Source of the DNA: Escherichia coli
GTDB lineage: Bacteria > Pseudomonadota > Gammaproteobacteria > Enterobacterales > Enterobacteriaceae
Reading direction: 5' to 3' (one strand)
Assembly: GCF_030013595.1 (NCBI RefSeq)
Contig: NZ_CP122768.1
Length of the DNA: 64,000 nucleotides
The notes under the pieces are model-generated. The model did no database searches. It saw only the letters and a program-made list of their open reading frames with translations, and was not told the origin of the DNA. A program made the position numbers and the translations under genes. Numbering within the stretch: position 1 is the first letter of the stretch; every line of letters starts with the position of its first letter. This document shows, piece after piece, positions 1 through 57,105 of the stretch.

Positions 1-883
1 TTCTCTTTTTAAACTGTATGTCTTCTGGATTTCCCACTAACTGACTGAAATCTCCTTTCATAACTCTTTCGCTTGTTTCAAAGAGCTGTATTGCTATCGA
101 GTCGATTAATTCCTTTTTGGACAGAGATGCTTGTTCATAAAATTTGGTGACTAACTCTGTTGGTAACTTTCTTGAGACGACTTTAATGGACAGTCTCTGA
201 AATAGGTAAGGTGCCACCACGCCCACACTGAAAGGGTGAATCCTCCCTGGATTTAATAATTTTATTGTGACGTTTTCAAAAACTAGCTCATTGATTTTAC
301 TATTTATGAATTCCATTAAATACTTATCTAATGATAATGTTACCGACGCAACCGCTTCTATCACTTGTTTAAATGGCTCGCCTTTCAAGGATTTAAAAAA
401 CTCTTTGTTATAACCAAAGAAATCCACAAAACCTAAATTTATTCGATTTTCTTCTTTAGTATTTGAAATGCGAATTTGAAGTTGTTTTAAGTCTTCATCG
501 GTCAAGTATTTTAAACCATAGTCATCAAGCGCGTTACGTATAACTTTATCTGCAGATTCTAAGTCGATTACAGTTTTTACATTAAAAAACAATGATAACA
601 ATGAATCATACTTATGAACTCGCAAGGTTAAATCTGTTGCATTTGATGCGGTTACATTTATACGTCTCAAAAGATCAATAACTTTACTAATTGGTAGGCT
701 GTTTTCAAAAATTTTGAATGACTCGTATTCAGATACAACATCTTTTATATACTTACTGATAGTATGAGACTTTATTTCCACCTCAACTTCGGTTGAGTAA
801 GAATGAATTAGTGAGTTTGTAGTTTCAGCGATGTCATTTGATACATACAACTTATATTCGAAACAATCAGGAGCGGGAAGCAA
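1..883 (-). CDS. hypothetical protein, partial (continues past left window edge); AT-rich accessory gene
   Basis: Open minus-strand frame from 883 to position 1 (>290 codons, translated by hand); no in-frame ATG near the 5' end, candidate GTG start at 779-781 after GAAG; different frame from the upstream ORF; ~30% GC. Confidence 0.4.
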   Translation of the reverse strand, partial: MLPAPDCFEYKLYVSNDIAETTNSLIHSYSTEVEVEIKSHTISKYIKDVVSEYESFKIFENSLPISKVIDLLRRINVTASNATDLTLRVHKYDSLLSLFFNVKTVIDLESADKVIRNALDDYGLKYLTDEDLKQLQIRISNTKEENRINLGFVDFFGYNKEFFKSLKGEPFKQVIEAVASVTLSLDKYLMEFINSKINELVFENVTIKLLNPGRIHPFSVGVVAPYLFQRLSIKVVSRKLPTELVTKFYEQASLSKKELIDSIAIQLFETSERVMKGDFSQLVGNPEDIQFKKR

Positions 884-1233
884 CTATTATCAATAATGGA
901 AAACAATAAAAATTTAATTATTTCTCTTAATGCTTGCGGTCTAGTTATTCTACCTTGCATTTTTTTACATTGTATTAAACCACTTACAACACCGTTATGG
1001 TATAGCACGCAGTCGCGTCCTCTTTCAGAAACTCCTTGCATTAAAGATATTGAGGATATATTTTTATGCTTTCCATCTTCAATTTCGTTCTTTACTAACA
1101 AATAACATAGCAACTCAAATTCTCGATCACCTAATTCTGAAAAGGGAAGCAATCCGATACCAGAATCTATAGTCCATGGTCTATATCCTGATTGAGCCTC
1201 GATATTAATTTGTTCGTCACTGATTTTTTTCAC
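808..1233 (-). CDS. hypothetical protein with PD-(D/E)xK-like motif (GRD...16 aa...IQCK)
   Basis: 141-aa ORF, GTG start at 1231-1233 with AAGGAG 6 nt upstream; AT-rich; motif recognised by eye only. Confidence 0.45.
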   Translation of the reverse strand: MKKISDEQINIEAQSGYRPWTIDSGIGLLPFSELGDREFELLCYLLVKNEIEDGKHKNISSISLMQGVSERGRDCVLYHNGVVSGLIQCKKMQGRITRPQALREIIKFLLFSIIDNSCFPLLIVSNISCMYQMTSLKLQTH

Positions 1234-1248
1234 TTAAATCTCCTTCTA

Positions 1249-1277
1249 ATCTTATTGACCTACTCCCTACATTGTAA
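1249..1277 (-). promoter_or_regulatory. putative sigma70 promoter (TTACAA-17-TAAGAT) for the 808..1233 ORF
   Basis: -35/-10 hexamers with 17-bp spacer read on minus strand just upstream of the RBS. Confidence 0.3.
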
Positions 1278-1548
1278 CAGGGGATGATGATAAGGTGTAT
1301 CTTTCGAGCTATAAGCACGATAAATAAGTGATTAAAAATGACTCTTTAAACTATTTTAATTTAAAAAATTAATTGTTAGTTCTAATTATGGTATGAGGGC
1401 ATTTTCGGCATAGTTCTAACCATATACTTTGGTAAAAATGACTGTTACGGAACAGACCATAGTAATGCCTGCTATTGGCACGGAGCGGGCCGCCTGAGCG
1501 CCGTGGGGTCTGCAAACGGTAAGCATACCGATAACTATACGCTTGGCC

Positions 1549-1968
1549 TTAGTAACTTTTGCTCCCCTCAATAAATCCGCCATCTTTTATCGGACTGCAA
1601 TGTCCTTCTTCATCAATCAGTTGCTCGTCTTTCAGGTAGGTATATCGATAGATAATTGAGCCATTATCCATCTCACCATTGGTTCGTTTCATTAGGAGAG
1701 TAAAATGTAACGGGCTGTCCCTATATCGAGCTATTCCATGAATATTGGCAAGTACCTCATATTGACGCTCAGGTGATAACCCTTTAAATACATCGAGATA
1801 TCCATGGAATGTTCCATAGAGTGAAGAAGTGTAGATCAGTCGCTGCTCTGGACCAGTAACTTTAAGAGTAATTTGTTCACCCGTATTACAGGTTAGCTTG
1901 GCGGGAAATGTCTCAGCCTGAGCAGAAGAAATAGTCAAGCTTAAAATTATCAGGTAGCAATATTTCAT
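1549..1968 (-). CDS. small secreted/periplasmic protein of unknown function
   Basis: ATG at 1966-1968 gives 139 aa with N-terminal signal peptide MKYCYLIILSLTISSAQA; two Cys in mature part; longer track ORF has an implausible N-extension. Confidence 0.5.
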   Translation of the reverse strand: MKYCYLIILSLTISSAQAETFPAKLTCNTGEQITLKVTGPEQRLIYTSSLYGTFHGYLDVFKGLSPERQYEVLANIHGIARYRDSPLHFTLLMKRTNGEMDNGSIIYRYTYLKDEQLIDEEGHCSPIKDGGFIEGSKSY

Positions 1969-2250
1969 GTGATTAGAATGTCCAAAACTAACATGTATAC
2001 TCGGGATTCTATAACTAGTTGGATGTAGACCCAAGATGTATTGGACTATTCTTCGGTTGTAGTTGGTCAAATCATATATTTTATGTCAGCAATGTCTACT
2101 TTTGGCACATAGCAGACCAGAGACACTGGCGTAAAGCCATGGAGGATCGGTGGGAGGAGGTAAAAATCCTCTCATGCAAAAAATACGCAAAATCGATAAC
2201 AGTTGGAAATCATTCAATACTCGCACTATCGGAAGTTCACCAGCCAGTCG

Positions 2251-2298
2251 TAGCACGTTCTTGCATATGACGTGGCTACGGGTTTCGAGACCGACCCG
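2251..2298. repeat. degenerate direct copy (~85%) of the pin 3' end plus its downstream hairpin
   Basis: Aligns base-by-base with 3272..3320; contains imperfect dyad GTAGCACG..CGTGGCTAC. Confidence 0.5.
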
Positions 2299-2376
2299 AT
2301 CATCAAACGAAACATAAAATTAGCTCACATTATGAGGAAAGGTATCTTTTTGCGCTATGTAAATTCAAAGGGTTAG

Positions 2377-3246
<870 letters not shown>

Positions 3247-3271
3247 GTCTTTAAGTGATAAGCATAAACCG

Positions 3272-3320
3272 CAGCACGATCTTGCATACGACGTGCTACG
3301 GTTTCATTTATCTCCGACCG
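3272..3320. terminator. hairpin between convergent GIY-YIG gene and pin (likely bidirectional terminator); partner of repeat at 2251..2298
   Basis: Dyad AGCACG-13 nt-CGTGCT followed by GGTTTCATTT; overlaps last pin codons. Confidence 0.45.
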
Positions 3321-3894
3321 GAAACTTCTTATACAAAGTCGATACACCCACATCGTAGATAATCGCCACCTTCTGGCGAGGAGTTCCTGCTGCAATTAAT
3401 CTTCCGGCTTGTGCCCATTGTTCTGGTGTAAGTTTGGGACGACGTCCACCAATTCGTCCCTGTGCGCGAGCAGCTTCCAGTCCAGCTTTTGTTCGTTCAA
3501 CAATCAGTTCACGCTCCATTTCAGCCAGGGCACCCATCACATGAAAGAAAAAGCGTCCCATTGGTGTGCTGGTATCAATTGAATCCGTCAGACTATGAAA
3601 GTTGATGCCTCGTTCGCGCAACTCCTCCACCAACACGACAAGATGCCGCATACTACGCCCCAGCCGATCCAGCTTCCAGACAACCAGAGTGTCACCTGCC
3701 GATAATGTCCTGAGCAGTTTTTTCAGTCCCGGCCTTTCGGACTTTGTGCCGCTTATCTTGTCTTCAAAAATCAGCTCGCATCCTGCACAGTTCAGCGCAT
3801 TACGTTGTAGATCTGTGTTCTGGTCATTTGTTGATACGCGTACATAGCCAATAAGCATGGTAGATCCCCCTGACAAAAGCAGGAATGATGCCAT
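3304..3894 (-). CDS. pin: DNA invertase Pin (Gin/Hin/Cin serine recombinase family)
   Basis: 196-aa ORF begins MLIGYVRVSTNDQNTDLQRNAL, near-identical to recalled e14 Pin. Confidence 0.95.
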   Translation of the reverse strand: MASFLLLSGGSTMLIGYVRVSTNDQNTDLQRNALNCAGCELIFEDKISGTKSERPGLKKLLRTLSAGDTLVVWKLDRLGRSMRHLVVLVEELRERGINFHSLTDSIDTSTPMGRFFFHVMGALAEMERELIVERTKAGLEAARAQGRIGGRRPKLTPEQWAQAGRLIAAGTPRQKVAIIYDVGVSTLYKKFPVGDK

Positions 3895-3912
3895 TTGCTC
3901 GTTATTTCTGCA

Positions 3913-3938
3913 TTTTCATAAACGTTGGTTTGGGAGAA
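3913..3938. repeat. gix/pix-like inversion crossover site (pin-proximal)
   Basis: TTTTCATAAACGTTGGTTTGGGAGAA; reverse complement matches 5774..5799 at ~20/26 and fits the AAACC..GGTTT core of Gin/Hin sites. Confidence 0.6.
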
Positions 3939-4283
3939 GCGGCAAAGAGGAATGTGGGGACAGGAGAAAATCAGGTACCGGATATGAACAGCTTTGGTAA
4001 CTCATTGACCGCCAATGGATACCAGAAATTACCTGGGGGGATGATTATTCAATGGGGGAGTTTTTCTGTCTCACCAACCGGAGGAAGTGTTGGAACAGTT
4101 GATATAACATTACCTGTAGCTTTCCCTGCTGCTTGTCGTTCGGTAAACGCTCTTATTTCAACTAATGATCCTTCTGCCCGTTCTGTGGGCTTTGATATTG
4201 GAAGTACCAACAGAACTAAAATCAGATTTACTTACACTTCTGCTACAACAAATTCAATTTACTGGATGGCTGTGGGGTATTAA
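3939..4283 (+). CDS. alternative tail-fibre C-terminal segment (Sv'-like), silent in this orientation
   Basis: In-frame coding begins at the crossover site; followed by a tail-fibre-assembly gene; upstream part of track ORF 3885.. spans the recombination site. Confidence 0.6.
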   Translation, partial: AAKRNVGTGENQVPDMNSFGNSLTANGYQKLPGGMIIQWGSFSVSPTGGSVGTVDITLPVAFPAACRSVNALISTNDPSARSVGFDIGSTNRTKIRFTYTSATTNSIYWMAVGY

Positions 4284-4285
4284 CT

Positions 4286-4717
4286 ATGGAAAAGACATAT
4301 TATTTTAATCCCTCTGATTCGGGATTTTATATTTCACCAGATAGCCAAACCATTCCTGAGAACGCTACGAAAATAAACTTTACTATTTATTCTGAGTTCG
4401 CAGGAGTTGCATGGCCTGATGGTAAAATACTTGGTTCAGATAAAAATGGTTTTCCAGCATGGCAGGATGCGCCACCACTTACCAGCGAAGAATTAATCTC
4501 AATCGCTGAATCAAATAAACAGCGATTAGTTAATCAGGCCAACGAATACATGAACAGTAAACAATGGCCTGGTAAAGCGGCGATTGGTCGTCTGAAAGGT
4601 GAGGAACTGGCGCAATATAATTTGTGGCTGGATTATCTGGACGCACTGGAACTGGTCGATACTTCCAGTGCGCCAGATATTGAATGGCCTACTCCTCCGG
4701 CAGTTCAGGCCAGATGA
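4286..4717 (+). CDS. tail fibre assembly protein (alternative, U'-like)
   Basis: 143 aa; C-terminal [12 protein letters not shown] motif typical of Tfa proteins; inside invertible segment. Confidence 0.75.
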   Translation: MEKTYYFNPSDSGFYISPDSQTIPENATKINFTIYSEFAGVAWPDGKILGSDKNGFPAWQDAPPLTSEELISIAESNKQRLVNQANEYMNSKQWPGKAAIGRLKGEELAQYNLWLDYLDALELVDTSSAPDIEWPTPPAVQAR

Positions 4718-5294
4718 CATCCGGCGCGGTACTGGTATCTGTTGCCGTCACCGCGTCAATGTAATCCAGCACAGTGTTAAGTCGGGTGGTCTCTGCCTGC
4801 ATCAGCTTCCGCCCGGCCTGCAATTTCAGTTGAATCAGACTAATGGAAGCCATTGCAGTATCAATCAGTGACTGACGTTGTGCTTCTGCCGCGTCTACTG
4901 CGGCGCTATGCTGTGTCTCAGTATCCGTTACCCATTTCTCACCATCCCATTTATCGTATGGCGTTAACGGGGCGATAGTGGTTGTTTTTTCGGGGTAATC
5001 ACCCGGAGTTGTGATTTCTTTGGCGTCTCCCGTTTCGGTGTTATAGACGATTTCACCGCGATGGTCTGGTACATATTCCCATGAGTTAAAATCTGCAGAG
5101 CGGCAGATTGCATAACCAGCTTTGTAGGTGCCTGGAGCATCTAAACAGGAATATGCCGGAATGCCGACACCAACAGCAAGATATTCAGTTGAAGCTGAAA
5201 TATACTCCCGACTCATGACGTCAAAGTTATAAACAGTAATTTCTCCTGCCATAGTGGCAATTAATTCACTGTTTAATTCTGCGTTATTCATCAT
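4689..5294 (-). CDS. tail fibre assembly protein (expressed orientation, U-like)
   Basis: 201 aa; C-terminal [15 protein letters not shown]; directly downstream of tail fibre gene. Confidence 0.8.
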
Positions 5295-6076
5295 GCGGCC
5301 CTCACAATATAATTAAAGGCGATGTTACGTGGACGATTTTCATTTGCTGTTGGAACAACATTTGCCGCCGAGAAGTGAACATCTTGTCGGATTTTTCGGT
5401 CATTAGCGTATGTCATAGACACATTGATGTTATTCCGGACTGAGGTACCTCCGTAAAAAGCTCCACTCACACTTTGAACATCGACAATTGCATTAATTTC
5501 GCTGTTTACGCGCAACTGACCAAAACCGCCAGTAATGTTTCGAATAGCATCTCCTTGCGATGAAAGCAGAGTTCGCCCACTATCCACACCACGTTCATCA
5601 TCCCAGCCACGAATAAACTCACCGCGTAAATCAGGCAATTTATTTGTCGGGTAAGACTTTGCCAGTTCCGGGTATTCTTCAGCAGAAAAAGCCGCACCAT
5701 TGCATTTCAGCCAGCCTGTTGGTGGAGTGGCTGAAGGCCACGGAACAGGCACACCAACGGGTAATGCCGAACCTTCTCCCAAACCAAGGTTTTCGAGAGC
5801 TGTTTTCACCGTGCCATCCGATTTGATATCGCCAAACGGATTCTTGCGGCTTAACAGCAGCGCACGAAGCGCGGTAAGCAGCTGGTCATGCCGCCCCTTC
5901 TCCAGGCTGGCACCGGATGCCTCCACAACGCTGCAAAGCTCCTCCTGCAACATGTCAAAGTAGTCATCATCCAGATCGGTGGCAGGCGTGCCGGTCTGGG
6001 GGTTACCACGGGTAAAACCGTTCTTACCCGCGCCGAACTTATCCTTCTGCGCGGTTTTCGTGTCTATACGATGCAT
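5291..6076 (-). CDS. tail fibre protein (constant N-part fused to variable C-part)
   Basis: 261 aa; contains second crossover site about 92 codons in; position after Mu gp48-like gene. Confidence 0.8.
5774..5799. repeat. gix/pix-like inversion crossover site (inside tail fibre gene)
   Basis: TTCTCCCAAACCAAGGTTTTCGAGAG, inverted repeat of 3913..3938. Confidence 0.6.
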
Positions 6077-6079
6077 GGA

Positions 6080-6664
6080 TTACTCCGGATATTTAAAAAT
6101 CACATAGGTATGCGACGGGCAGAGTTTGTTAAGAACACACTCGACAACGGTGTCCCCCCAGAAGCGCAGCGCGGAATCACAGGGATCGCCACATGTCATC
6201 CAGGTGGTGTTGGTGGCGGCTGGCATGTTGACCTGCCAGTAATACCGCCATTCAGGCGCATTCACCGCGTCAGTACAGGCCGATGAGCAGGTGAACGTGC
6301 TTTTGTCGTATCGCGTGATGTTGGCATCCAGTCTGCCCAGGGCAGCAAGCTGTGCAAGATAAAAATTCTCGTTGATGCCGCCCGCCAGGTTAACCTTCGC
6401 ATCCAGCCGTTGCTGACGCTGGCGAAGGGTCTGTGTCCCTGTAGGAATACATTCATCCGGCAGGCCGCACAGACGCTCCCAGCGATTTATCAGTTCGGTG
6501 GTGGTGCGCGGATCCAGCTCCCGCATCAGGGCATCCGCACGCTGATGAACGCGGGTTAATGACGGTGCCGCACCGGCAATCGCCGGATCGCTGGCTGACC
6601 ACGCCGGACCGGGCGGCAACAGTGCTGACAACAGACGGATGTAATCATCGTTTGTCACGTCCAT
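6080..6664 (-). CDS. Mu gp48-like tail protein (YmfQ/DUF2313 family)
   Basis: 194 aa; resembles e14 YmfQ-type protein; position between baseplate J and tail fibre. Confidence 0.75.
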
Positions 6665-7713
6665 GAAATCGCCCCCAGAACCGCCAGTTCATTTTTTGCA
6701 ATGGTGATATTGTCCGCCGGTGCAAGCAACTGATGGCTGTATTCCCCGTTCGCACCGGAAATCGCTTCACTGATACGTGACACCTTCAGTTCTCCCTGCG
6801 GATAACCATCACGCAGCAGGAACGAACGCAACTCCGCGGTGATGGCAGCCCGTATTTCCGGTGTGTCCGGCGTAACACGGATATGAAAATCCACCGTATG
6901 TGCCACCGGCCTGAACACATACAAATCAGAGCCTGCCACCGGGGCCAGTGGCCCGATATGTTGTCTTGCCGCCGTTTCCGTTGATTCTTCCGGAATGGGA
7001 TTAATCAGGTCACTGCTGGCAATCATCACACCGACAGTCCCCGTTCCCATCCAGTGTCGGTATGTCCATGCGCGGGTAATGCCAGGCACTTCTTTAGCCC
7101 AGACGACATAGTCCCCGTCAGCCCCGCCCTGCGGCGTCCAGTAATACCGCTCAATGACGCGGGCGCGCCACGTTTCCAGCTCTTCAGTATCAAATCCGCC
7201 TGTCAGGGTGTCAGCCACACCGGAAGACGGCAGACCATTCACCGGCGTGACCAGGATTAATGCCGTACCGTCGTCAGCGTTACCGACCGCACCTGCACTT
7301 GAGCAGGCGATCGGCACGCGCAGGACACCACCGGAGCTGATTGCATCGTCAGTTGTCGTGTACTGCACCAGGTCATCGCGCTGAATAACACTCCCGGCAG
7401 TCACCTTCAGGCCATCGCTGACACCTTCCCAGCGCATATACCCGCTGGCAACCGTGGCTCCCTTGCGCGGACACCGTTTCATCGCAGCATGTCGCGCCAA
7501 CCAGGACTCATCGCACAGGTCAGGCAGCATATTCATTGCCAGATAATCGATGTAACCGTAGACCGTATGCAGCGCCGCCGCATACACCTTTGCCCGCACG
7601 TCTTCATCCATGCGCCGGAGCGTGTCGCTGACGTCCAGCCTGGCGAATAAATCGTTACGGAGCATACTGATATTTTCTGCCAGCGTCGGGCGCTGAAATT
7701 CACTGTCCGCCAT
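6655..7713 (-). CDS. baseplate J-like protein (Mu gp47-like)
   Basis: 352 aa; family resemblance and synteny. Confidence 0.8.
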
Positions 7714-8128
7714 GCGTTATCGCACTCCACAGATCATCAAAAGAAATCATTACTGGTCCATCACGACGCCAGAGGGTGATACTGTTACCCAGCTCATTAA
7801 TCCCGGTGCGGCGGATATCCAGATCAATACGGGACACCACGCCGTCATCAGTCATCCATTGCAGGCATTCGCGGATATATCCCCTTACCGTCTGCACCAG
7901 CTGATTGGTCAGTTTGCTGCGCTGAAGCAGCCACAGTCGGGAGCCGTAACGGTCATTCTGTACCGCAGGCCAGGTATCCCCCCACCATCCCATCGGGACG
8001 TCGGCATTGTCATCAGGCTCCGCCCGCCGCCAGGTGAACAGGGAAATCACCACGGCGCGGGTCAGCGGATCCAGCGGTGCGCTGGCGCAGGTGCGTTTAC
8101 CGTTCACCGTCAGCCACAGTTCCATCAT
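7700..8128 (-). CDS. baseplate protein, GPW/gp25-like (Mu gp46-like)
   Basis: 142 aa; synteny in Mu-like baseplate block. Confidence 0.75.
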   Translation of the reverse strand: MMELWLTVNGKRTCASAPLDPLTRAVVISLFTWRRAEPDDNADVPMGWWGDTWPAVQNDRYGSRLWLLQRSKLTNQLVQTVRGYIRECLQWMTDDGVVSRIDLDIRRTGINELGNSITLWRRDGPVMISFDDLWSAITHGGQ

Positions 8129-8673
8129 GCCTCCATCGCTTTATCAGGTTTGTCGGTGTTACTGCCCTGACCGTTCTCTCTGTGACGATGCCCGTTATAG
8201 GCAAGCCGCATCGCTGACATGGTGGTGCCGCCGGAGTCGCACAGGTCTTTCACTTGTCCGGTCACTTCCAGATCCATTTCAAAACGTGCTTCAGTTGCAT
8301 TGCGAAACGTGATCGTTTTCCCTGCACCGTCCACCACGATCCCCTCCCGGGTCAGCGTCACAGACTGCCCCTGATCGTCATAGACAGCCACCTCACCCGT
8401 CTGCAGCCCTTTCAGGCGGTAGCGCCGGTCCGACACCGTAACAACCACCGCATGAGAACGGTCGCCATCCGGAAACAACACCACCGCTTCCGCACCGCTG
8501 TTTGCCCTTGCGGTAAAACCGTAGGGTTCAAGATGTTCAACCCCGGCTTTGGGTTCACCGGCAATCAGGGACACATCCACGGTCTGACATTTCGTGGCGG
8601 CACTGATGCTTTTCACCACGGCCCGCCCAATCAGGCCGAGAAGTTGTCGCTGCATGGCTTCAATCGTCCTCAT
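8125..8673 (-). CDS. baseplate assembly protein V / spike (Mu gp45-like)
   Basis: 182 aa; synteny and family resemblance. Confidence 0.75.
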   Translation of the reverse strand: MRTIEAMQRQLLGLIGRAVVKSISAATKCQTVDVSLIAGEPKAGVEHLEPYGFTARANSGAEAVVLFPDGDRSHAVVVTVSDRRYRLKGLQTGEVAVYDDQGQSVTLTREGIVVDGAGKTITFRNATEARFEMDLEVTGQVKDLCDSGGTTMSAMRLAYNGHRHRENGQGSNTDKPDKAMEA

Positions 8674-9752
8674 CAGAACGGGTCCTCCTGTACTCTGGCT
8701 TTTTTCTTTTTCCGCGCGCCGGGGGCTTCGGGTCCAGGCAGATAAGCATCAGGCGGGCCGACACGGATTTCCGTCAGGGTGCCGTTCTGGTCCTGAGTAA
8801 ACGTGACTTCCGAGACAAGCAGTTCGGTATTGTCGAAACCACAGACCGGATCGAAGACAATCACCCGCTGGTTGGGCTGCCACAGCGTACCGTTACCCTG
8901 TCGCCAGCCCTGCACCACATAGGTGGTTTCATCCGTCCGCGCCGCCCGTTGCCGGGCTTCAAAGTCAGCACGCGCAATACAGCCTGCCCCCGTAGCCTGC
9001 CCTGTCTGCCTGATATACATCGGACGGTAACGGGCAATAAATGCGTCTTCTGTGCGGGCCCGCAGCGCGGTGGTGGTGGCCTCACCGAAATCATCGTCGT
9101 TTCCGGCACGCTGCCCCGCCACCTGGTAAACAGAAAACCGCTCCCGGATACTCTTCTCCGTATCGCAGGAAAGGATGTTTTCCCCGAGTACCAGCGCGGT
9201 ATGTGCCCGCGTTGAGCCAATACCGCCAATCACCAGCCTGCCGTGCGAGTCGTCGTAAGCCAGCGCCTGCTGCTGACCGAGTATTTTGTTGATCACCTCG
9301 ATCACCGTTTCACCGTGATCAGGCTGGACATCAGGAATAACACCCGACGGCGCACCGCTGTTCACCACCTCAATGCCGAAAGGCGCAGCAAGCGCCTGCG
9401 CAATCTGTACCAGCGATCGTCCGTTAAACTGTGTCGGTTCGGCTGCACAGTCAATCAGGTCAGCGGTCAGACTACGTCCGGCAATACCGGTGCTGACCGA
9501 ACGGGCATCGTAACGAACGGGCGTCGCCTCCACCCAGCCAGTGATCACCAGCTCATCACCAATCAGCACTTCCACTTTTGAACCGTTTTTAATGCGCGGC
9601 TGAAGCGTGGTGATACCCTCATCTCCCGGCCACTGGCGGGTGATCTCCACACTGAAATCCCGCGCCAGTCGTTCAACACCGGCACCGATGCGCACCGATG
9701 TCCAGCCATTCCACTCCCGGCCATTTACCCGTAGCGTGACGTTATCGTTCAT
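8673..9752 (-). CDS. Mu gpP-like tail protein (baseplate hub)
   Basis: 359 aa; synteny after DNA circulation protein. Confidence 0.8.
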   Translation of the reverse strand: MNDNVTLRVNGREWNGWTSVRIGAGVERLARDFSVEITRQWPGDEGITTLQPRIKNGSKVEVLIGDELVITGWVEATPVRYDARSVSTGIAGRSLTADLIDCAAEPTQFNGRSLVQIAQALAAPFGIEVVNSGAPSGVIPDVQPDHGETVIEVINKILGQQQALAYDDSHGRLVIGGIGSTRAHTALVLGENILSCDTEKSIRERFSVYQVAGQRAGNDDDFGEATTTALRARTEDAFIARYRPMYIRQTGQATGAGCIARADFEARQRAARTDETTYVVQGWRQGNGTLWQPNQRVIVFDPVCGFDNTELLVSEVTFTQDQNGTLTEIRVGPPDAYLPGPEAPGARKKKKARVQEDPF

Positions 9753-19910: not shown

Positions 19911-21129
19911 TGGCGTTATCCTTCTGCTTACCGGCTTTACTGCCATCGGAGGGCTTCGTGGTCATGTTCATCGGTGTGAGATAGACATCACCACCGGGAC
20001 GCGGATTCATATCTTCCAGGTCGCGGCAGTCATTGGGAGAGTAAATTCCCCAGTTGATCCCGGTGGCGTAGGCTTCAAAACGGGACTTCATATCCCCGCG
20101 CAGTAACGCCCCGGCGTTAAATTTGGCGTAATAAACACCCTGCTTACTTTTTCGTACCAGTCCGGTGTTGATCCGCTGCTCAATGCGGGTCAGATACGGC
20201 ACCAGTGAATAGTTGATAAATCCGAGCCCCAGCTCTTCGATATTGTTGAAGGTGGCGCGATCGGTGTTCTGCACCATGTGCAATGGCACACGGAACAGAC
20301 GACAAATTTCTTCAAGCTGAAACTTGCGGGTTTCCAGGAACTGGCTGTCCTCTGCGTTCAACGCCATCGACTTCCAGTCCAGCCCCATCTCAAGGATCAT
20401 CGGGCGGTGAGCATTGCCAAGCCCGGTGTGACGCTCCTCAAAATCTTTCTTCAGGCGCTCATAAGCCTGATCCGACAGCGTCTGCTCTGTACGCAACACA
20501 CCCGACGTCACCGCGCCATTGCTGAACAGTCTGGCCCCGTGCTCTTCGGTCGCTGCCGCCAGCGATATTGCCTCGCGGGCATAGGCGATGGGATTCAGCC
20601 CCACCAGTCCGTCCAGCGTCAGCGTGCGCACATGCCAGATATCCTCCTGGCTCAGTACATCCGTGGAGCCATCCGGGAATGTGACCTGATAGATCGGCTC
20701 CCAGCTACTGTTAAGCTTCGGTACCACACAGCCGGGATCGACGGGCAGCAGTTCAGCCACTTCGCCAAATGCTTTCACTTTGTAGGCGTAAAAGTTTCCC
20801 CGCAGGCACAGACAGGTGACCACCAGCTCCCAGAACTCCTGCGGCGTCATATAGTCATTGGGATGCGTGGAGATCAGCTTATGCAGACGTTCGCCAGTGG
20901 CTCTCTGCTTCAGGCTGCCGTTCAGGTGATACAGGTTGCAGGGCAACATCCCGACCGACTCCGCCAGCACCCTGACACAGGAAAAAACCGCCGTCAGTCG
21001 CATGGCCCGCTGGCTGCTGATCTGCTTTCCGGTATAGGTGTCGTAGGACAACCCGATAGCATCCGCCAGCTCTGCTGGCGTGGTCACCGGTGCGTCACTT
21101 TTTCGTTGAAATAATCCCGAAAAGAACAC
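19888..21129 (-). CDS. portal protein
   Basis: 413 aa; between terminase and protease. Confidence 0.9.
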   Translation of the reverse strand: MFFSGLFQRKSDAPVTTPAELADAIGLSYDTYTGKQISSQRAMRLTAVFSCVRVLAESVGMLPCNLYHLNGSLKQRATGERLHKLISTHPNDYMTPQEFWELVVTCLCLRGNFYAYKVKAFGEVAELLPVDPGCVVPKLNSSWEPIYQVTFPDGSTDVLSQEDIWHVRTLTLDGLVGLNPIAYAREAISLAAATEEHGARLFSNGAVTSGVLRTEQTLSDQAYERLKKDFEERHTGLGNAHRPMILEMGLDWKSMALNAEDSQFLETRKFQLEEICRLFRVPLHMVQNTDRATFNNIEELGLGFINYSLVPYLTRIEQRINTGLVRKSKQGVYYAKFNAGALLRGDMKSRFEAYATGINWGIYSPNDCRDLEDMNPRPGGDVYLTPMNMTTKPSDGSKAGKQKDNANADETTS

Positions 21130-21311
21130 TATTTACCTCCGCCGACAGACGACTGTGTACGGTCGAGATATCGCGCCACCAGCCACGACCAGAACAGGCA
21201 CAACGCCCCGGCAACAACAAACCCCGCCGGGGGATAAATCAGCCAGGCACCATACGCCAGCAAAAGCGCCCCCAGCACGCCCACCAGAGGCGCGAGAATC
21301 AGCATGATCAT
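21129..21311 (-). CDS. small two-helix membrane protein
   Basis: 60 aa, two hydrophobic segments; between terminase large subunit and portal. Confidence 0.35.
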
Positions 21312-21322
21312 AATTACCTCAG

Positions 21323-23056
21323 TTAAAGCGAGCGGATCCCATAGGACTCAATGTGGTCAGACAACGTGTCTTCTTTCTCGTACAGCATGGCTCTGCCAAC
21401 CGCCATAATCAGCGCAACTGCACCATCGATTTTGTTTTCCGCCTGCTCTTTGACGGGCTTCACCACATCATCGTTACCCGGAATGGTTTTGCCGACCACG
21501 TTGCCGATACACCAGGTCATGATGGGATTGCCATCATGATGAAAGCGCCCCGATTCAATTGCCGCTTCCAGCTCTTTCATCGGGTCGGACATGTTGGTGT
21601 AGTTCTGAATGATAGTGATGGGGTTCAGGTCTTCATCAGCCAGGTCATGTGACAGCCCGGTCGCCCCGAAGGGGTCGATGGGTGACTCACTGACCGGGCT
21701 GATTTTGTTCGCCGCTTTGGCCTCCTCGAGGATGTAGCGATAATCCACCTCCGCACCATCGGTAACGGTCAGAACGCCCATTACCACCCATTTCTGAAAG
21801 CGTTCGGCTGTCCGTCGATCTTCATTTTTCTCGACACTGTACACCGTGTCATACGGTACCCAGAAACGCGGGGCCACACTGTAGTAATGCGTTTTACCGT
21901 CAATCTCGCGGGTATAAAGTCGCGCCATGCTGTTCATATCCAGCTTACGCGCCAGGTCAAAGGCCAGAATGCACGGCTGCCCCTCGAACTGCTCAAGGGT
22001 CAGTGATTTATCCTCGCAGCTCTGCCAGCTCACCAGGTTGAAATACGCCGAACGCGCCGACACCCAGATATTGAGGTGCTTTGTTTTAAAGACGTTTGCC
22101 AGACGGGCGTTATTTTTCGCACGCTGCTGCTGACTTAACAAAAATTCGCGATAAACCGACACGCCAATATTCGGGTTAGCTTTTTCCAGCACCTGCGGGT
22201 CGGTCCAGTCATCGCCTTCGTCAACGGTATAGATGATCCCGAACAGTTCATCGTTGGGTACCGACCCGTTGAGCATCTCGATAACTTCCCGCCGCTTGTC
22301 GTAGCACGGCCCCTCAATGTTGTACCCGGCAGTAGTAATGGCCCACATCAGTGGCTGACGTCGCGCCCCCATCCCGGTAAGCATCGTGGTGTAAAGCGCA
22401 TCGGTGGCGTGCTCGTGATATTCATCCACCACCGCACAGTGGGGTGATGATCCATCACCGGGGTTACCGATCAGCGGTTCAAACCGCGCGCCATCCTCCG
22501 GACGGTTCATGTTTGAGGCGTTAACCTCAATCCCGAACGCTTCCGTCAGCATGGGCGTGCGTTTACACATCAGTCGCGCCGGGCGAAAGACTTCCCACGC
22601 CTGTTTCTCTGTCGTGGCACCGGAATACACTTCCGCGCCAAACTCGTTATCACAGGCAAAACAATACAGGGCAACACCGGCAGAGATTGCTGATTTGCCG
22701 TTCTTACGGGGGATTTCGGTATACACCTCCCGGAAGCGGCGCAACCGGGTGCCTTTATTGACCCAGCCAAACGCACAGCAGATCACAAAGAGCTGCCACG
22801 GCTCCAGCGTGATGGGCATCCTCTTGAATGCCCACTCACCCTTGGTGTGCGGCAACAGCTGAATAAATTTGGCGGCCCGTTCAGCCAGGTCCTTGTCGAA
22901 GCGGTAACGAAACGACTTACTTTTTTCCGCCATCAGGTCATCAAGATGGCGCTGGCAGGCCTGAATCACAAACTGGCAGGCCACAATCTTTCCGCGAACG
23001 ACATCCCGGGCATACTGATTGGCAGCATTTACGTTGGGGTAAGATTTCCGGCTCAT
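21323..23056 (-). CDS. terminase large subunit
   Basis: 577 aa; ATPase-nuclease family resemblance. Confidence 0.9.
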
Positions 23057-23556
23057 GATTCGATGATTTTCAGAAACGGGTTAGTAGCTTTCTTCTGCCC
23101 CGCCAGGCCAATCAGACGCTGGCGGCTGCTGGGGTCGAGTCCGAGCATTGCCCCCGTGCTGCTCATCTCGGACTCCTGTTCTTTTTTGGCGGTCAGCTCA
23201 GGATTTTTGACCATACCGCCCATTGCACCGGTGATGGTGTTGCCCTGTCTGGCAATATTTTTCACGGCACGTCGCCAGAACTCATAGGCCACACACCACC
23301 GCTCAAGCACCGCGAGGTCAGTCACGCACAGCAGGCCCTGACCGCAAAGTTCTTTAGTTGTCAGTTGCCACATGATCGTGGCGAGAGGGAGATCTTCTTC
23401 AGCGAACCACTCCGGTGGCTCAACACCTTTGATGGGCGTAAAAACAGGTTCATCTTTATTCAGGGCTCGCTTGCCGGGGTTTCCGGCCAGCGCCTTGCGC
23501 GCCGTTGGCTTGGGGCGACGCCCGGAACGCCCCGCCGTTCCAGCCATATGCGGCAC
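23053..23556 (-). CDS. terminase small subunit (P27 family)
   Basis: 167 aa; 4-nt overlap with large subunit. Confidence 0.8.
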
Positions 23557-23672
23557 TCCTGGTTAAATTTCATTTTTCGCGGGTATAAAAAAACGATGGG
23601 GCGGGCAGTCCGGAAGACGTCAGGTCACAGAGATTTGACCCGCCCCTCCCCTCAGACAGTTGAGAATTATTA

Positions 23673-24023
23673 TCACTTTAGCCGTTCACGGGCCGTCTTC
23701 GCCTTATGGCACGGCCAGCACAGGCTCTGCAGATTACTGTCTGCATCGGTGCCGCCATGCGCTTTAGGGATGATGTGGTCAACGGTTTTCGCCTCACGCA
23801 CCACACCAGCACGCAGACATAACTGACACAGGCCTTTGTCACGCTTCAATATGCGCGCGCGGATACTGTCCCACTTCGAACCGTAGCCGCGCTGATGACG
23901 GGATTGCCCCGGCTTGTATTGTTTCCAGCCTTCGTTTTTGTGGCTTTCGCAGTAGCCTGACGGGTCTGTAGTGGTATTACGGCAGCCGCGAACGCGGCAG
24001 GCTTTTGGGATTCGTGATGGCAT
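23673..24023 (-). CDS. HNH endonuclease (packaging-associated)
   Basis: HNH motif DHIIPKAHGGTDADSNLQSLCWPCHKAKT plus Cys-rich zinc ribbon; ATG 24021-24023 with GGAG 5 nt upstream. Confidence 0.85.
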   Translation of the reverse strand: MPSRIPKACRVRGCRNTTTDPSGYCESHKNEGWKQYKPGQSRHQRGYGSKWDSIRARILKRDKGLCQLCLRAGVVREAKTVDHIIPKAHGGTDADSNLQSLCWPCHKAKTARERLK

Positions 24024-24149
24024 ATGTACTCCAATGAAGAAGCCACCGACATAGCCTCCTCCATTCATCGTGAAACTATTTTCATCTACGCAGTCATGAA
24101 TTCTTTGTAGAGTTGTGATCAATACAACTCACTAATGGAGAGGCTTGTC

Positions 24150-24171
24150 CAACACGTTGGACAAGTTTCCT
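24150..24171. repeat. perfect 10-bp inverted repeat with 2-bp spacer (CTTGTCCAAC-AC-GTTGGACAAG), then T-rich tract
   Basis: Read directly; could be an operator or an orphan + strand terminator. Confidence 0.4.
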
Positions 24172-24246
24172 GTTTGATTTACTGGACACTATAGAAGGAC
24201 AGAATGCCTTCCTCACTCGAATAACATTAATTAAGGAGGTTCAACA

Positions 24247-25575
24247 CTGATGAATCCCCTAATGATTTTGGTAAAAATCATTAAGTTAAGGTGGATACAC
24301 ATCTTGTCATATGATCAAATGGTTTCGCGAAAAATCAATAATCAGACAACAAGATGTGCGAACTCGATATTTTACACGACTCTCTTTACCAATTCTGCCC
24401 CGAATTACACTTAAAACGACTCAACAGCTTAACGTTGGCTTGCCACGCATTACTTGACTGTAAAACTCTCACTCTTACCGAACTTGGCCGTAACCTGCCA
24501 ACCAAAGCGAGAACAAAACATAACATCAAACGAATCGACCGATTGTTAGGTAATCGTCACCTCCACAAAGAGCGACTCGCTGTATACCGTTGGCATGCTA
24601 GCTTTATCTGTTCGGGCAATACGATGCCCATTGTACTTGTTGACTGGTCTGATATTCGTGAGCAAAAACGACTTATGGTATTGCGAGCTTCAGTCGCACT
24701 ACACGGTCGTTCTGTTACTCTTTATGAGAAAGCGTTCCCGCTTTCAGAGCAATGTTCAAAGAAAGCTCATGACCAATTTCTAGCCGACCTTGCGAGCATT
24801 CTACCGAGTAACACCACACCGCTCATTGTCAGTGATGCTGGCTTTAAAGTGCCATGGTATAAATCCGTTGAGAAGCTGGGTTGGTACTGGTTAAGTCGAG
24901 TAAGAGGAAAAGTACAATATGCAGACCTAGGAGCGGAAAACTGGAAACCTATCAGCAACTTACATGATATGTCATCTAGTCACTCAAAGACTTTAGGCTA
25001 TAAGAGGCTGACTAAAAGCAATCCAATCTCATGCCAAATTCTATTGTATAAATCTCGCTCTAAAGGCCGAAAAAATCAGCGCTCGACACGGACTCATTGT
25101 CACCACCCGTCACCTAAAATCTACTCAGCGTCGGCAAAGGAGCCATGGGTTCTAGCAACTAACTTACCTGTTGAAATTCGAACACCCAAACAACTTGTTA
25201 ATATCTATTCGAAGCGAATGCAGATTGAAGAAACCTTCCGAGACTTGAAAAGTCCTGCCTACGGACTAGGCCTACGCCATAGCCGAACGAGCAGCTCAGA
25301 GCGTTTTGATATCATGCTGCTAATCGCCCTGATGCTTCAACTAACATGTTGGCTTGCGGGCGTTCATGCTCAGAAACAAGGTTGGGACAAGCACTTCCAG
25401 GCTAACACAGTCAGAAATCGAAACGTACTCTCAACAGTTCGCTTAGGCATGGAAGTTTTGCGGCATTCTGGCTACACAATAACAAGGGAAGACTTACTCG
25501 TGGCTGCAACCCTACTAGCTCAAAATTTATTCACACATGGTTACGCTTTGGGGAAATTATGAGGGGATCTCTCAG
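24247..25575 (+). mobile_element. IS10, complete 1329-bp copy
   Basis: Outside end CTGATGAATCCCCTAATGATTTTGG at 24247, inside end CTGAGAGATCCCCTCA (reverse complement) at 25560-25575; flanks GGTTCAACA and TATTAAGCG differ, so no 9-bp duplication. Confidence 0.95.
24354..25562 (+). CDS. IS10 transposase
   Basis: 402 aa beginning MCELDILHDSLYQFCPELHLKRLNS, matches recalled IS10 transposase over its length. Confidence 0.97.
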   Translation: MCELDILHDSLYQFCPELHLKRLNSLTLACHALLDCKTLTLTELGRNLPTKARTKHNIKRIDRLLGNRHLHKERLAVYRWHASFICSGNTMPIVLVDWSDIREQKRLMVLRASVALHGRSVTLYEKAFPLSEQCSKKAHDQFLADLASILPSNTTPLIVSDAGFKVPWYKSVEKLGWYWLSRVRGKVQYADLGAENWKPISNLHDMSSSHSKTLGYKRLTKSNPISCQILLYKSRSKGRKNQRSTRTHCHHPSPKIYSASAKEPWVLATNLPVEIRTPKQLVNIYSKRMQIEETFRDLKSPAYGLGLRHSRTSSSERFDIMLLIALMLQLTCWLAGVHAQKQGWDKHFQANTVRNRNVLSTVRLGMEVLRHSGYTITREDLLVAATLLAQNLFTHGYALGKL

Positions 25576-25604
25576 TATTAAGCGTCAATGAGCGTCTGGA
25601 AAGA

Positions 25605-26519
25605 ATGAAAGGCAGGCGCTCAGACATTACGGTGACAGAATGGCTTGATAAATATATTTCTATCCAGGAGGACAGGCTGCAACATAATGAACTAAGACCC
25701 AACTCCTATCGGCAAAAAGGCAAACCCATTCGTCTTTTCCGTGAGCATTGTGGAATGCAACACCTCAAGGATATTACCGCACTTGATATTGCCGAAATAA
25801 TTGATGCTGTAAAGGCTGAAGGTCATAACAGGATGGCGCAAGTCGTGAGAATGGTGTTGATCGACGTCTTCAAAGAAGCACAACACGCAGGACATGTTCC
25901 GCCAGGATTTAACCCAGCGCAGGCAACAAAACAACCGCGAAATCGAGTAAACCGCCAAAGATTGTCACTGCCCGAATGGCAGGCAATATTTGAAAGCGTA
26001 AGCAGACGGCAGCCCTATTTAAAATGCGGCATGCTACTTGCTCTTGTTACTGGACAACGTTTAGGCGATATCTGCAATTTGAAATTCTCTGATATATGGG
26101 ACGACATGTTGCACATTACTCAGGAAAAAACCGGTTCAAAACTTGCTATTCCGCTTAACCTGAAATGCGATGCTCTGAATATTACCCTTCGTGAAGTTAT
26201 ATCTCAGTGCAGGGATGCTGTTGTTAGTAAATATCTGGTCCATTACCGTCACACTACCTCTCAAGCAAACAGAGGAGACCAGGTTTCTGCAAATACTCTG
26301 ACAACGGCTTTTAAAAAGGCCCGGGAAAAATGTGGCATAAAATGGGAGCAAGGAACTGCGCCCACATTTCATGAGCAGCGATCTCTGTCAGAACGGTTAT
26401 ATCGGGAACAGGGTCTGGATACGCAAAAGTTGTTAGGCCATAAATCCAGAAAAATGACCGACCGATACAATGATGATCGTGGTAAAGACTGGATTATCGT
26501 AGATATCAAAACAGCATAG
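25605..26519 (+). pseudogene. lambda-family tyrosine integrase lacking the N-terminal arm-binding domain
   Basis: 304 aa aligning to lambda Int from about residue 65; catalytic motifs (HxxR, LLGH, DRY) intact; frame closes at a stop inside the IS10 end. Confidence 0.8.
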
Positions 26520-26529
26520 AAAATAGCCA

Positions 26530-26565
26530 GTTTTGGGGAAGGGTTTTGGGGAAAGTTTTGGGGAA
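26530..26565 (+). promoter_or_regulatory. three direct 11-bp repeats GTTTTGGGGAA (candidate integrase arm-type sites)
   Basis: Copies at 26530, 26543, 26555 between int stop and icd stop. Confidence 0.4.
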
Positions 26566-26580
26566 GATTTTACATCATCA

Positions 26581-26609
26581 TAAAACAACGGGCGTGTTAT
26601 ACGCCCGTT
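26581..26609 (-). terminator. icd transcription terminator
   Basis: 9-bp stem AACGGGCGT/ACGCCCGTT, 5-nt loop, U-rich tail on minus strand just after icd stop. Confidence 0.6.
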
Positions 26610-26632
26610 TCAATATTTAACACATGTAGAGA

Positions 26633-27883
26633 TTACATGTTCTTGATGATTGCATCACCAAACTCGCTGCATTTCAGCAGTTTAGCACCTTCCATCAGAC
26701 GTTCGAAGTCATAGGTTACGGTCTTGGCGTTGATTGCGCCTTCCATACCTTTAACAATCAAGTCTGCGGCTTCAGTCCAGCCCATATGGCGCAGCATCAT
26801 CTCAGCGGAGAGAATAATAGAGCCTGGGTTTACTTTGTCCTGACCGGCATATTTCGGCGCAGTACCGTGGGTGGCTTCAAACAGGGCGCATTCGTCACCG
26901 ATGTTTGCGCCTGGGGCGATACCGATACCGCCGACCTGTGCAGCCAGAGCGTCAGAAATGTAGTCACCGTTCAGGTTCATACAGGCGATAACATCATATT
27001 CAGCCGGACGCAGCAGGATCTGTTGCAGGAATGCGTCAGCAATCACGTCTTTAATGACGATCTCTTTGCCGGTATTCGGGTTTTTAACTTTCAGCCACGG
27101 GCCGCCGTCGATCAGTTCACCGCCAAACTCTTCACGCGCCAGCTGGTAGCCCCAGTCTTTAAACGCGCCTTCGGTGAACTTCATGATGTTGCCTTTGTGC
27201 ACCAGGGTCACAGAGTCACGATCGTTAGCAATTGCGTATTCGATCGCTGCACGAACCAGACGTTTGGTGCCTTCTTCCGAACACGGCTTAATACCGATAC
27301 CGCAATGTTCCGGGAAGCGAATTTTCTTCACGCCCATCTCTTCACGCAGGAATTTAATCACTTTCTCGGCGTCGGCAGAGTCAGCTTTCCATTCGATACC
27401 CGCATAAATGTCTTCCGAGTTTTCACGGAAGATAACCATATCGGTCAGTTCAGGGTGTTTAACCGGGCTTGGAGTGCCCTGATAGTAACGTACCGGACGC
27501 AGGCAGATGTAGAGATCCAGTTCCTGACGCAGGGCAACGTTCAGAGAGCGAATACCGCCACCAACCGGAGTGGTCAGCGGACCTTTAATGGCAACGCGAT
27601 ATTCACGAATCAGATCAAGGGTTTCAGCAGGCAGCCAGACATCCTGACCATAAACCTGTGTGGATTTTTCACCGGTGTAAATTTCCATCCAGGAGATTTT
27701 ACGCTCGCCTTTATAGGCTTTCTCGACTGCAGCGTCGACCACTTTCAGCATGGCTGGGGTTACATCTACACCGATTCCATCACCTTCAATGTAAGGGATA
27801 ATCGGATTTTCAGGAACGTTGAGTTTGCCGTTTTGCAGGGTGATCTTCTTGCCTTGTGCCGGAACAACTACTTTACTTTCCAT
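26633..27883 (-). CDS. icd: isocitrate dehydrogenase (NADP)
   Basis: 416 aa, [45 protein letters not shown]; full-length match to recalled E. coli Icd. Confidence 0.97.
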
Positions 27884-38548: not shown

Positions 38549-39395
38549 GTTCCAGAATGTAGTGATTGTCACTATTGTCGGTTGGCTTGTGTTGTTTGTC
38601 TTTCTGCCCAACCTGATGATCATTGGCACCAGCTTTTTGACCCGCGACGACGCCAGTTTCGTCAAAATGGTCTTTACGCTGGATAACTACACGCGTCTGC
38701 TCGATCCGCTCTATTTTGAAGTGCTATTGCACTCGCTGAATATGGCGCTGATCGCCACCCTCGCCTGCCTGGTGCTGGGCTATCCTTTTGCCTGCTTTCT
38801 GGCGAAGCTGCCACACAAGGTGCGTCCGCTGCTGCTGTTTCTGCTGATTGTTCCGTTCTGGACCAACTCATTGATTCGTATCTACGGGCTGAAAATTTTC
38901 CTCAGCACCAAAGGCTATCTCAACGAGTTTTTGCTCTGGCTGGGCGTTATTGATACACCAATTCGCATCATGTTCACGCCCAGTGCGGTGATTATCGGTC
39001 TGGTTTACATTCTGCTACCGTTTATGGTGATGCCGCTGTACTCCAGTATCGAAAAACTGGATAAGCCGTTGCTGGAGGCGGCGCGCGATCTCGGTGCCAG
39101 CAAGTTGCAGACCTTTATCCGCATCATTATCCCACTGACGATGCCGGGAATTATTGCCGGATGTTTGCTGGTGATGCTGCCAGCGATGGGCCTGTTCTAT
39201 GTGTCCGACCTGATGGGCGGTGCGAAAAACCTGCTGATCGGTAACGTCATCAAAGTACAGTTCCTCAATATTCGTGACTGGCCGTTTGGTGCAGCCACCA
39301 GCATTACGCTGACTATCGTAATGGGCCTGATGTTGCTGGTTTACTGGCGCGCTTCTCGTTTGCTGAATAAGAAGGTGAGCGATATAGATAATTAA
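38532..39395 (+). CDS. potB: spermidine/putrescine ABC transporter permease; extreme C-terminus differs from recalled K-12 and potC does not follow
   Basis: Multi-TM permease; ends ...[12 protein letters not shown]; next 230 bp non-coding then prophage genes; true start may be an internal GTG. Confidence 0.85.
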
Positions 39396-55488: not shown

Positions 55489-57105
55489 TTACGGCATACT
55501 CATCAGCAGGTCTTCCTCACCGCGCCCGGCAGTTCCGCCACCGGAAACCGCACTGGCAGCATGCTGTGCCATAAAGCGATCAAAAAGTGTTTCCTGTGAC
55601 GGTTGCGATGCCGCCGGCGCGGCTGCCAGCAGCGTTTTCGCCTGCGCCACCGTCATTCCCGGTTGTTCTGTCAGTGCCTGTGCAAGTTGCTCGCGCCCTT
55701 TTGCCTCCGGCAGCGCCATAATCTGATCGCCGACACTTGCAGAACCAGCAACCGGTGCCGCCGCCAGTAACGTTTTGGCCTGGTCAACGGTCATTCCCGG
55801 CTGTTCAGCCAGCGCCTGCGCGAGTTGTTCACGCCCTTTTGCTTCCGGTAACGCCATAATCTGATCGCCTGTGCCTGCAGCACCAGCAGCAGGGGCTGCC
55901 GCCAGAAACGCTTTCGCCTGCTCCACCGTCATCCCCGGCTGACCTGCCAGCATCTGTGCCAGTTGCTCACGCCCCTTTGCTTCCGGCAGCCCCATAATCT
56001 GATCGCCCGTGCTGTCAGTACCGGCAACCGGCGCAGCTGCAAGCAACGTTTTCGCCTGCTCAACCGTCATTCCTGGCTGACCTGCCAGCATTTGCGCCAG
56101 TTGCTCGCGCCCTTTCGCCTCCTGACAATTCAGGATCCCCATCACGCGCTGATTTTCCTGGGCCACCGCTTCAGCAACGGTGAGATTTTTAACAGTCATT
56201 GCATTCTCCTTCGTAACAGAGTCATTCAGTACAGAAACCATCACTTCAACGGCATCTGCAGCATTAATCAGTTGATCAGCCAGGCCTGCATCAATGCCTG
56301 CCTGACCGTCATAAACGGCAGCCTCGGTATTCATCACCGCCTCTGAACTCAGCCCCGTATAAAGCGCCACCTTGTCGACAAACATCCGGCGGGCCTCATC
56401 AATACGGCGCTGAAAATCTGCACGCACACCTGCCGGCAATGCCTGAATACTGTTGCCGTCAACCTTATGCTGCCCGGAGTAAATCAGCGTGATGTCCACC
56501 CCTTCCTGTGCCAGTTGTTTCTCGTAACTGGTGTGCGCCATCATCACGCCAATCGAACCAATTTTTGCCGTCTGCGTGACCAGCCGACGGGTACAGGCTG
56601 CCGCCAGCAACATGGCGGCTGAACAGGCCATGTCATTACACAGCGCCCACACGGGCTTCTGTTCCCGCAGACGGTAAATCATGTCAGCACAGTCAAACGC
56701 CCCGGCAGCCTGACCGCCCGGGCTGTCGATATCCAGCAAAATGCCGCGCACATCCGGATCATTCACCGCCATCTGAAGGCGGGCCGTCAGGCCGTCATAG
56801 CCAGTCATGCCGGAGTAAGGCCGCAGGGTACCCAGTTTATGCACCAGCGTGCCGCTCACCGGAAGAATGGCGATGCCATTCTTCACCTGGTAACTCTTTG
56901 CCGGACGCTGACCGCCCGCCATATAGTCAGTCACAGCCAGTTGCATACCATCAGCATCAAGCTGAACAGCCTGCTGAGGAACGGCAAGGCTGCCGGCACC
57001 CATCTCTTTACCCAGCGCGCAAAAGAAAACCCGCGCATAGGCGGGTTCCAGTAAAAGCGGCTCATTAAATGCCATGGCGGCAATATGCGATAAATTACGA
57101 CGCAT
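55489..57105 (-). CDS. head maturation protease/scaffold (S49/ClpP-like, gpC-like) with repeat-expanded C-terminus
   Basis: 538 aa; N-terminal peptidase domain, four 46-aa tandem repeats in C-terminal half. Confidence 0.85.
   Translation of the reverse strand: MRRNLSHIAAMAFNEPLLLEPAYARVFFCALGKEMGAGSLAVPQQAVQLDADGMQLAVTDYMAGGQRPAKSYQVKNGIAILPVSGTLVHKLGTLRPYSGMTGYDGLTARLQMAVNDPDVRGILLDIDSPGGQAAGAFDCADMIYRLREQKPVWALCNDMACSAAMLLAAACTRRLVTQTAKIGSIGVMMAHTSYEKQLAQEGVDITLIYSGQHKVDGNSIQALPAGVRADFQRRIDEARRMFVDKVALYTGLSSEAVMNTEAAVYDGQAGIDAGLADQLINAADAVEVMVSVLNDSVTKENAMTVKNLTVAEAVAQENQRVMGILNCQEAKGREQLAQMLAGQPGMTVEQAKTLLAAAPVAGTDSTGDQIMGLPEAKGREQLAQMLAGQPGMTVEQAKAFLAAAPAAGAAGTGDQIMALPEAKGREQLAQALAEQPGMTVDQAKTLLAAAPVAGSASVGDQIMALPEAKGREQLAQALTEQPGMTVAQAKTLLAAAPAASQPSQETLFDRFMAQHAASAVSGGGTAGRGEEDLLMSMP
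55590..56145 (-). repeat. four in-frame tandem repeats of 138 bp inside the protease/scaffold gene
   Basis: Motif CG(T/C)TTTCGCCTG... recurs at 55633, 55771, 55909, 56047 (period exactly 138); protein repeat LPEAKGREQLAQ.LA.QPGMTV.QAK.LLAAAP.AG. Confidence 0.85.

Follow-up and report, generated by a model that had tools for sequence, protein, structure and literature searches.

The 3′ end of icd in an Escherichia coli chromosome is probably supplied by a phage-21-type prophage

The icd gene of the E. coli genome analyzed here (RefSeq assembly GCF_030013595.1, contig NZ_CP122768.1) raises the question of whether its 3′ end belongs to the chromosome or to a prophage. In the window, by which we mean the whole analyzed stretch of 64,000 nucleotides, icd is an intact ORF of 416 codons on the minus strand (positions 26633-27883 in the program-made ORF list). 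A sequence-only reading had claimed two C-terminal differences from K-12 Icd and had taken them as a sign of a phage-supplied 3′ end. Indeed, comparison of the whole protein with Icd of MG1655 (NC_000913, b1136) revealed exactly two residue changes, D398E and E414K, and the K-12 residues that the reading had given (MDGAKLL and AIIENM) agree with the MG1655 icd translation. The span that had been given for the replaced part, 26633-26800, has to be shortened slightly: the 165-nt unit, which comprises codons 363-416 and the stop codon, is located at 26633..26797 (minus strand), and 26798-26800 belong to the upstream part of icd. As judged from sequence comparison, the best explanation, to which we assign a probability of about 90%, is that these last 165 nt were supplied by a phage-21-type prophage via site-specific integration.

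The evidence starts directly downstream of icd, where the remnant of a phage-21-type tyrosine integrase gene is oriented convergently with icd (25576..26519, plus strand). The assignment is based on nucleotide identity to phage 21 and on a Pfam match to Phage_integrase (E = 8e-24). Three arm-type integrase binding repeats, TTTTGGGGAARR, follow between int and the icd copy (26531..26567, plus strand); these are the only three exact matches to the motif in the whole window, compared to 0.07 expected, and the attP subsites P1P2P3, with the consensus YYTTCCCCAAAA, are annotated at the same positions in phage 21. Direct observation revealed that positions 25576-26796 are colinear with phage 21 (OL657228, M61865) at 98.7% nucleotide identity over 1221 nt; int and the arm region, 1004 nt in all, contribute 5 of the differences. 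The phage 21 record lists the same order of elements, that is, int, P1P2P3, a terminator, and a 165-bp "ICDH-like" pseudogene. A base-by-base alignment placed the abrupt end of the icd homology to phage 21 at 26796/26797, corresponding to icd nt 1088/1087, and the displaced icd fragment of K-12, icdC, starts at the same nucleotide, icd nt 1087. Because the colinearity extends up to 26796, the last 165 nt of icd, the stop codon, and the terminator are physically part of a phage-21-type attachment module. This also holds for the 53-nt 3′ flank of icd (26580..26632, minus strand), which has an intrinsic terminator hairpin (−21.6 kcal/mol, z = −4.3 by folding) and is found in the phage 21 genome, where it is annotated as a terminator; in genomes with an empty site, the match to the window reaches down to 26580 and no further. 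The reading frame of icd is preserved across the attachment junction. Among 5426 complete E. coli genomes, 1635 (~30%) have this arrangement of int next to icd.

If the 3′ end came with the prophage, how does it compare with the same gene at an unoccupied site of the same lineage? The nearest relative, picked with a pure core query from rluE to potB, was HCP5S3_I2, which has 99.9% identity over the core flank and in which icd directly adjoins iraM, with no prophage in between. A ranking by coverage had made the window look like an unusual lineage with core identities of 97 to 98%; this was rejected as an artefact of that ranking once the pure core query gave the 99.9% relative. Between window positions 26580 and 39395, only 15 differences were observed in 12,816 aligned nt, and 7 of these are within the 165-nt segment (icd nt 1090, 1092, 1123, 1197, 1204, 1215, and 1233), where the window carries C1090/G1092, T1123, T1197, and A1233 and HCP5S3_I2 has T1090, A1092, C1123, C1197, T1204, T1215, and G1233. 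In contrast, the other 1086 nt of icd (26798..27883, minus strand), which we regard as host derived, are identical in the two genomes. The remaining differences comprise 5 isolated ones over the next 11.5 kb and 3 at the junction of a second prophage. This clustering, again a direct observation, is far from chance (P ~3e-10 in both the binomial and the Fisher test), with a background divergence of about 0.04%. Thus, the 3′ end is not identical to that of the unoccupied icd of the same lineage, an identity that would have spoken against the sequence-only reading. All seven differences within the segment are synonymous, and HCP5S3_I2 and the window encode the same Icd protein; for this lineage, the swap would therefore leave the protein unchanged. 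Had the ancestor been HCP5S3-like, the crossover would lie between nt 1087 and 1090, but the true interval may be wider, since C1090/G1092 are also common host states.

Comparison with two lysogens gave the opposite pattern. In Z1323PEC0014, a lysogen with a different chromosomal background, the phage side (25576-26797) has 1 difference in 1222 nt, whereas the host part of icd has 17 differences in 1086 nt (phage versus host side, P = 4e-5); within the 165-nt segment, the prophage-side copy of this strain differs from the window at 1 site. Similarly, SCU-301 differs from the window at 2 sites in the 165-nt segment and at 16 sites in the host part of icd. With a near-identical phage side and a divergent host icd in both strains, the segment follows the prophage and not the chromosome. 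SCU-301 also exhibits the full anatomy of such an insertion, with iraM, a 168-nt icd pseudogene, a 46.7-kb lambdoid prophage, xis, int, and icd. In strain 20R2R (L018, O157-like) and in H12, a phage-21-type int adjoins icd as well, yet only one icd-like place per genome was reported; in these strains, the displaced icd fragment has apparently been lost or has diverged too far.

The two residues that had drawn attention to the locus turned out to be a property of K-12 rather than of the window. The 3′ end of K-12 icd is located inside the annotated prophage e14, whose start is 165 nt before the icd stop, and the displaced icdC encodes MEGAKLL...GEAIIENM; therefore, D398 is the state of the e14-borne copy, and in our sample, it was seen only there. 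E414, on the other hand, is common to e14 and K-12-like lineages. Hence, the window differs from K-12 because the K-12 reference combines an e14-borne end (D398) with a residue of the K-12 lineage (E414). The C-terminal peptide of the window (E398, D410, and K414) is present in five of the seven sampled genomes with an empty icd site (19KM1776, HCP5S3_I2, 2009C-3133, MS14385, and H15) and, among the sampled alleles, also in all phage-21-type copies and in the icd fragment that is displaced in SCU-301. The sequence-only reading was thus supported in its conclusion, but its reasoning from amino acids was weak, since the peptide is not diagnostic.

The same peptide data would also fit the view that nothing was replaced and that the 3′ end is the lineage's own allele, with an integrase fragment that is merely adjacent. 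Apart from the peptide, which is a common E. coli type, this view can draw on 19KM1776 (L003), a strain of another lineage with an empty site that is identical to the window from icd nt 868 through the first 53 nt after the stop codon. We nevertheless consider it very improbable: phage 21 itself has the segment between arm sites and core and is colinear with the window to nt 1088, and in the empty allele of the nearest lineage, 7 of the 165 sites are different, whereas the background divergence is ~0.04%. The identical 3′ end at the empty site of 19KM1776 does indicate that such alleles also circulate without a prophage and that the sequence type alone cannot separate a phage-supplied end from a resident one. 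A phage-supplied end is recognized by its position and context, and by neither peptide nor nucleotide type alone. The identical tract in 19KM1776 begins upstream of the attachment point, which suggests loss of a prophage by homologous recombination or import from a lysogen.

This tract also fits another explanation, in which homologous recombination or gene conversion, either with DNA from another E. coli lysogen or between the two icd 3′ copies, gave rise to the segment instead of a site-specific integration in this lineage. Several further observations are in line with it. The 165-nt alleles are strongly mosaic, with patchy variation at occupied and empty icd sites alike, and differ from the window by up to 18 sites over 218 nt (165 nt plus the 53-nt flank). 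In strain 23753, int has 2 differing sites compared to the window, and icd′ has 14. Furthermore, the window copy is itself composite: nt 1087-1229 are phage-21-like (3 sites differ from phage 21, compared to 6 from HCP5S3_I2), whereas the distal 75 nt (nt 1230-1304, flank included) are host-like (9 sites and 1 site, respectively). Against this explanation, the tract of differences from HCP5S3_I2 starts at nt 1090, at most 3 nt from the phage homology boundary, following 1086 nt without any difference, and the next 11.5 kb contain just the 5 isolated differences plus the 3 at the junction of the second prophage; an import would not be expected to stop at the attachment core; and the segment is continuous with phage arm sites and int. 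As the origin of the segment, we therefore regard recombination as improbable, and site-specific integration of a phage-21-type prophage remains our preferred reading.

Recombination may have shaped the allele otherwise. From its mosaic structure we infer repeated exchange, whether between phage and host or, in lysogens, between the copies at the two junctions. A point against the preferred reading is that the exact 3′ allele of the window is absent from the sequenced phages in the phage collection, where phage 21 is the best match with 95%, and a 69-nt stretch spanning the distal end of the allele has no exact match in IMG/VR. It is imaginable, if only tentatively, that the 165-nt end of icd is a small exchange cassette that shuttles between phage and chromosome, with a hybrid as the window copy. 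Near-identical integrase modules would then carry very different icd′ copies, phage-type ends would persist at sites that are now empty, for example, in 19KM1776, and the hybrid of the window could come from a lysogen whose two junction copies recombined. As a separate part of this tentative picture, the element may be a natural hybrid phage, in which a myovirus body of the SfV/e14 type uses a phage-21 integration module.

In our model, a temperate phage with a phage-21 integration module would have entered attB in icd, 165 nt from the end of the gene, by Int-mediated site-specific recombination. This module combines the tyrosine integrase and the three arm-type sites with a copy of the 165-nt icd end, terminator included. 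Because the phage attP carries the icd copy, the int-side junction would rebuild a full-length, terminated icd, with the first 1086 nt from the chromosome and the last 165 nt from the phage. The native 3′ end would be displaced to the far junction of the prophage, beside iraM. Later, IS10 would have removed the 5′ end of int, and with it excision by the element's own integrase would have been lost; as a consequence, the element could not excise itself and the phage-borne 3′ end would be effectively fixed. In the window, neither a repeat search, nor a 21-mer search that tolerated 3 mismatches, nor BLAST with K-12 icdC-iraM or the 19KM1776 left flank as query detected a second icd fragment that could be the displaced native end. 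iraM is absent from the window as well, and the prophage DNA runs past its left edge, so that the displaced fragment would be expected outside the window.

The truncation of int, which was observed directly, is caused by an IS10 element (ISVsa5-like; 24247..25575, plus strand) of 1329 bp with a transposase ORF of 402 aa, 99.9% identical to an annotated element of the ISVsa5 family in one of the compared sequences (L006). It abuts int at about codon 67; for comparison, int of phage 21 starts 199 nt ahead of the point at which the homology of the window begins. The 9-mers on either side, GGTTCAACA (24238-24246) and TATTAAGCG (25576-25584), are different, and therefore, the element did not arrive by a simple insertion. 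The lack of the 9-bp target-site duplication would imply that two IS10 copies recombined or that a deletion occurred next to the element. An unrelated element, ISEc52, interrupts the same phage-21-type int in strain 23753 (L010 18552-20947) within about 4 nt of the IS10 junction of the window. A shared insertion of the two strains was considered and rejected, since 23753 carries a different element at almost the same point; the phage-21-type int may contain an insertion hot spot.

To the left of IS10, the window contains a structural and cargo module of the SfII/SfV/e14-like myovirus type (1..24246, minus strand; assigned with Pfam) with HNH and terminase genes, an HK97-type head, a sheathed tail, a pin invertase, and a GIY-YIG gene. 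This module is 96 to 97% identical to vB_EcoM-720R4, vB_EcoM-689R6, and SfII, and the same structural module is annotated in TK3896. No xis, repressor, replication, or lysis genes were found between IS10 and the HNH/terminase genes or elsewhere in the prophage part of the window, and the prophage is a defective, truncated remnant. How did the integration module and the myovirus module come together? Gene order and orientation in the window fit a single prophage with an internal deletion, and vB_EcoM-689R6, which carries this structural module, also has an icd fragment; we consider it fairly likely that a single prophage underwent an internal deletion promoted by IS10. In four relatives examined, the leftmost cargo genes of the window are located at other sites, namely in the yagU/pao region or beside another integrase, and the start of the window is a few hundred bases short of the end of the module as seen in relatives, where the junction of the module with the chromosome is about 230-800 nt farther on. 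Since the module left of IS10 occurs at other sites there, a rearrangement mediated by IS10 may instead have joined two elements, which we regard as less likely.

Further traces of mobile elements were noted in this part of the chromosome. K-12 and genomes whose icd site is empty contain a degenerate 48-nt version of the terminator flank of icd ~0.9 kb beyond icd, past iraM and ymgK (L003 5134-5181, L006 46014-46061, and L001 17945-17993), with 84 to 90% identity to window positions 26582-26628. Hence, iraM of these genomes is located between direct repeats of the sequence that follows icd, which could be the relic of an old integration. A second prophage is located at the 3′ end of potB (39378-64000; potB ends at 39395) and encodes a gpA-type terminase, a lambda-family portal, an S49 protease, an E-type capsid protein, a tail sheath, and tail fibers. 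The S49 protease/scaffold gene contains three tandem repeat copies with a spacing of 138 nt and 79% identity (55610-56122). Homology of potB to prophage-free genomes stops at 39377, and therefore, the second prophage also seems to supply substitute last codons, in this case for potB. The genome of the nearest lineage has a related element at the same place in potB, and potC and potD are absent from the window.

Among known systems, phage 21 resembles the window in gene order, arm-site repeats, terminator position, and the endpoint of the icd homology at nt 1088, and its last 53 encoded Icd residues are identical. The window departs from phage 21 in several respects: of the 217 homologous positions of icd′ (nt 1088-1304), 11 are different, with a cluster close to the stop codon; IS10 has cost int roughly its first 66 codons; neither xis nor any lambdoid early gene is present; and the neighboring structural genes belong to the SfII/SfV/e14 myovirus type, whereas those of phage 21 are of the lambdoid siphovirus type. 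e14 of K-12 has the same attB position (icdC starts at icd nt 1087) and a similar structural and pin-invertase module, and it follows the same principle, in which the phage brings a substitute 3′ end and the displaced native end becomes a pseudogene. Identity of the element with e14 was rejected, however, since the integrase shares only 62% aa identity with IntE and the 3′ alleles differ at 19 of 165 coding sites; in addition, 17 of the 53 flank sites differ, the e14 copy encodes D398 and E414, and e14 has the cargo genes ymfD, ymfE, and lit between icd and intE, whereas int of the window is directly beside icd. Intact phage-21-type lambdoid prophages at icd, as in SCU-301, whose icd′ allele is 2 nt from that of the window, and NC-SV of strain NC101 (PMC12803456), have the same int-icd junction. 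These prophages are complete and keep the displaced icd′ beside iraM, whereas the element of the window is truncated by IS10 and its far junction is outside the window. Integration of e14 into icd with a substitute 3′ end, which is the same mechanism, has been described (PMC6379469; bioRxiv 10.64898/2026.06.14.732165) and is credited to Hill, Gray, and Brody (1989) in these two sources; the attachment site of phage 21 in icd has been named as well (PMC12803456).

In sum, the phenomenon is already known and the instance is ordinary: one more genome confirms icd as a phage attachment site at which the split gene is repaired by the phage, and the direct importance of this is small. For the end of icd, K-12 serves poorly as a reference, because its own 3′ end is within the annotated e14. 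With int truncated by IS10, the strain would not be able to regain its original icd 3′ end via normal excision. icd is used in E. coli sequence typing, and its last 165 nt should not be taken as a vertical signal, since the segment follows the history of the prophage and not that of the chromosome.
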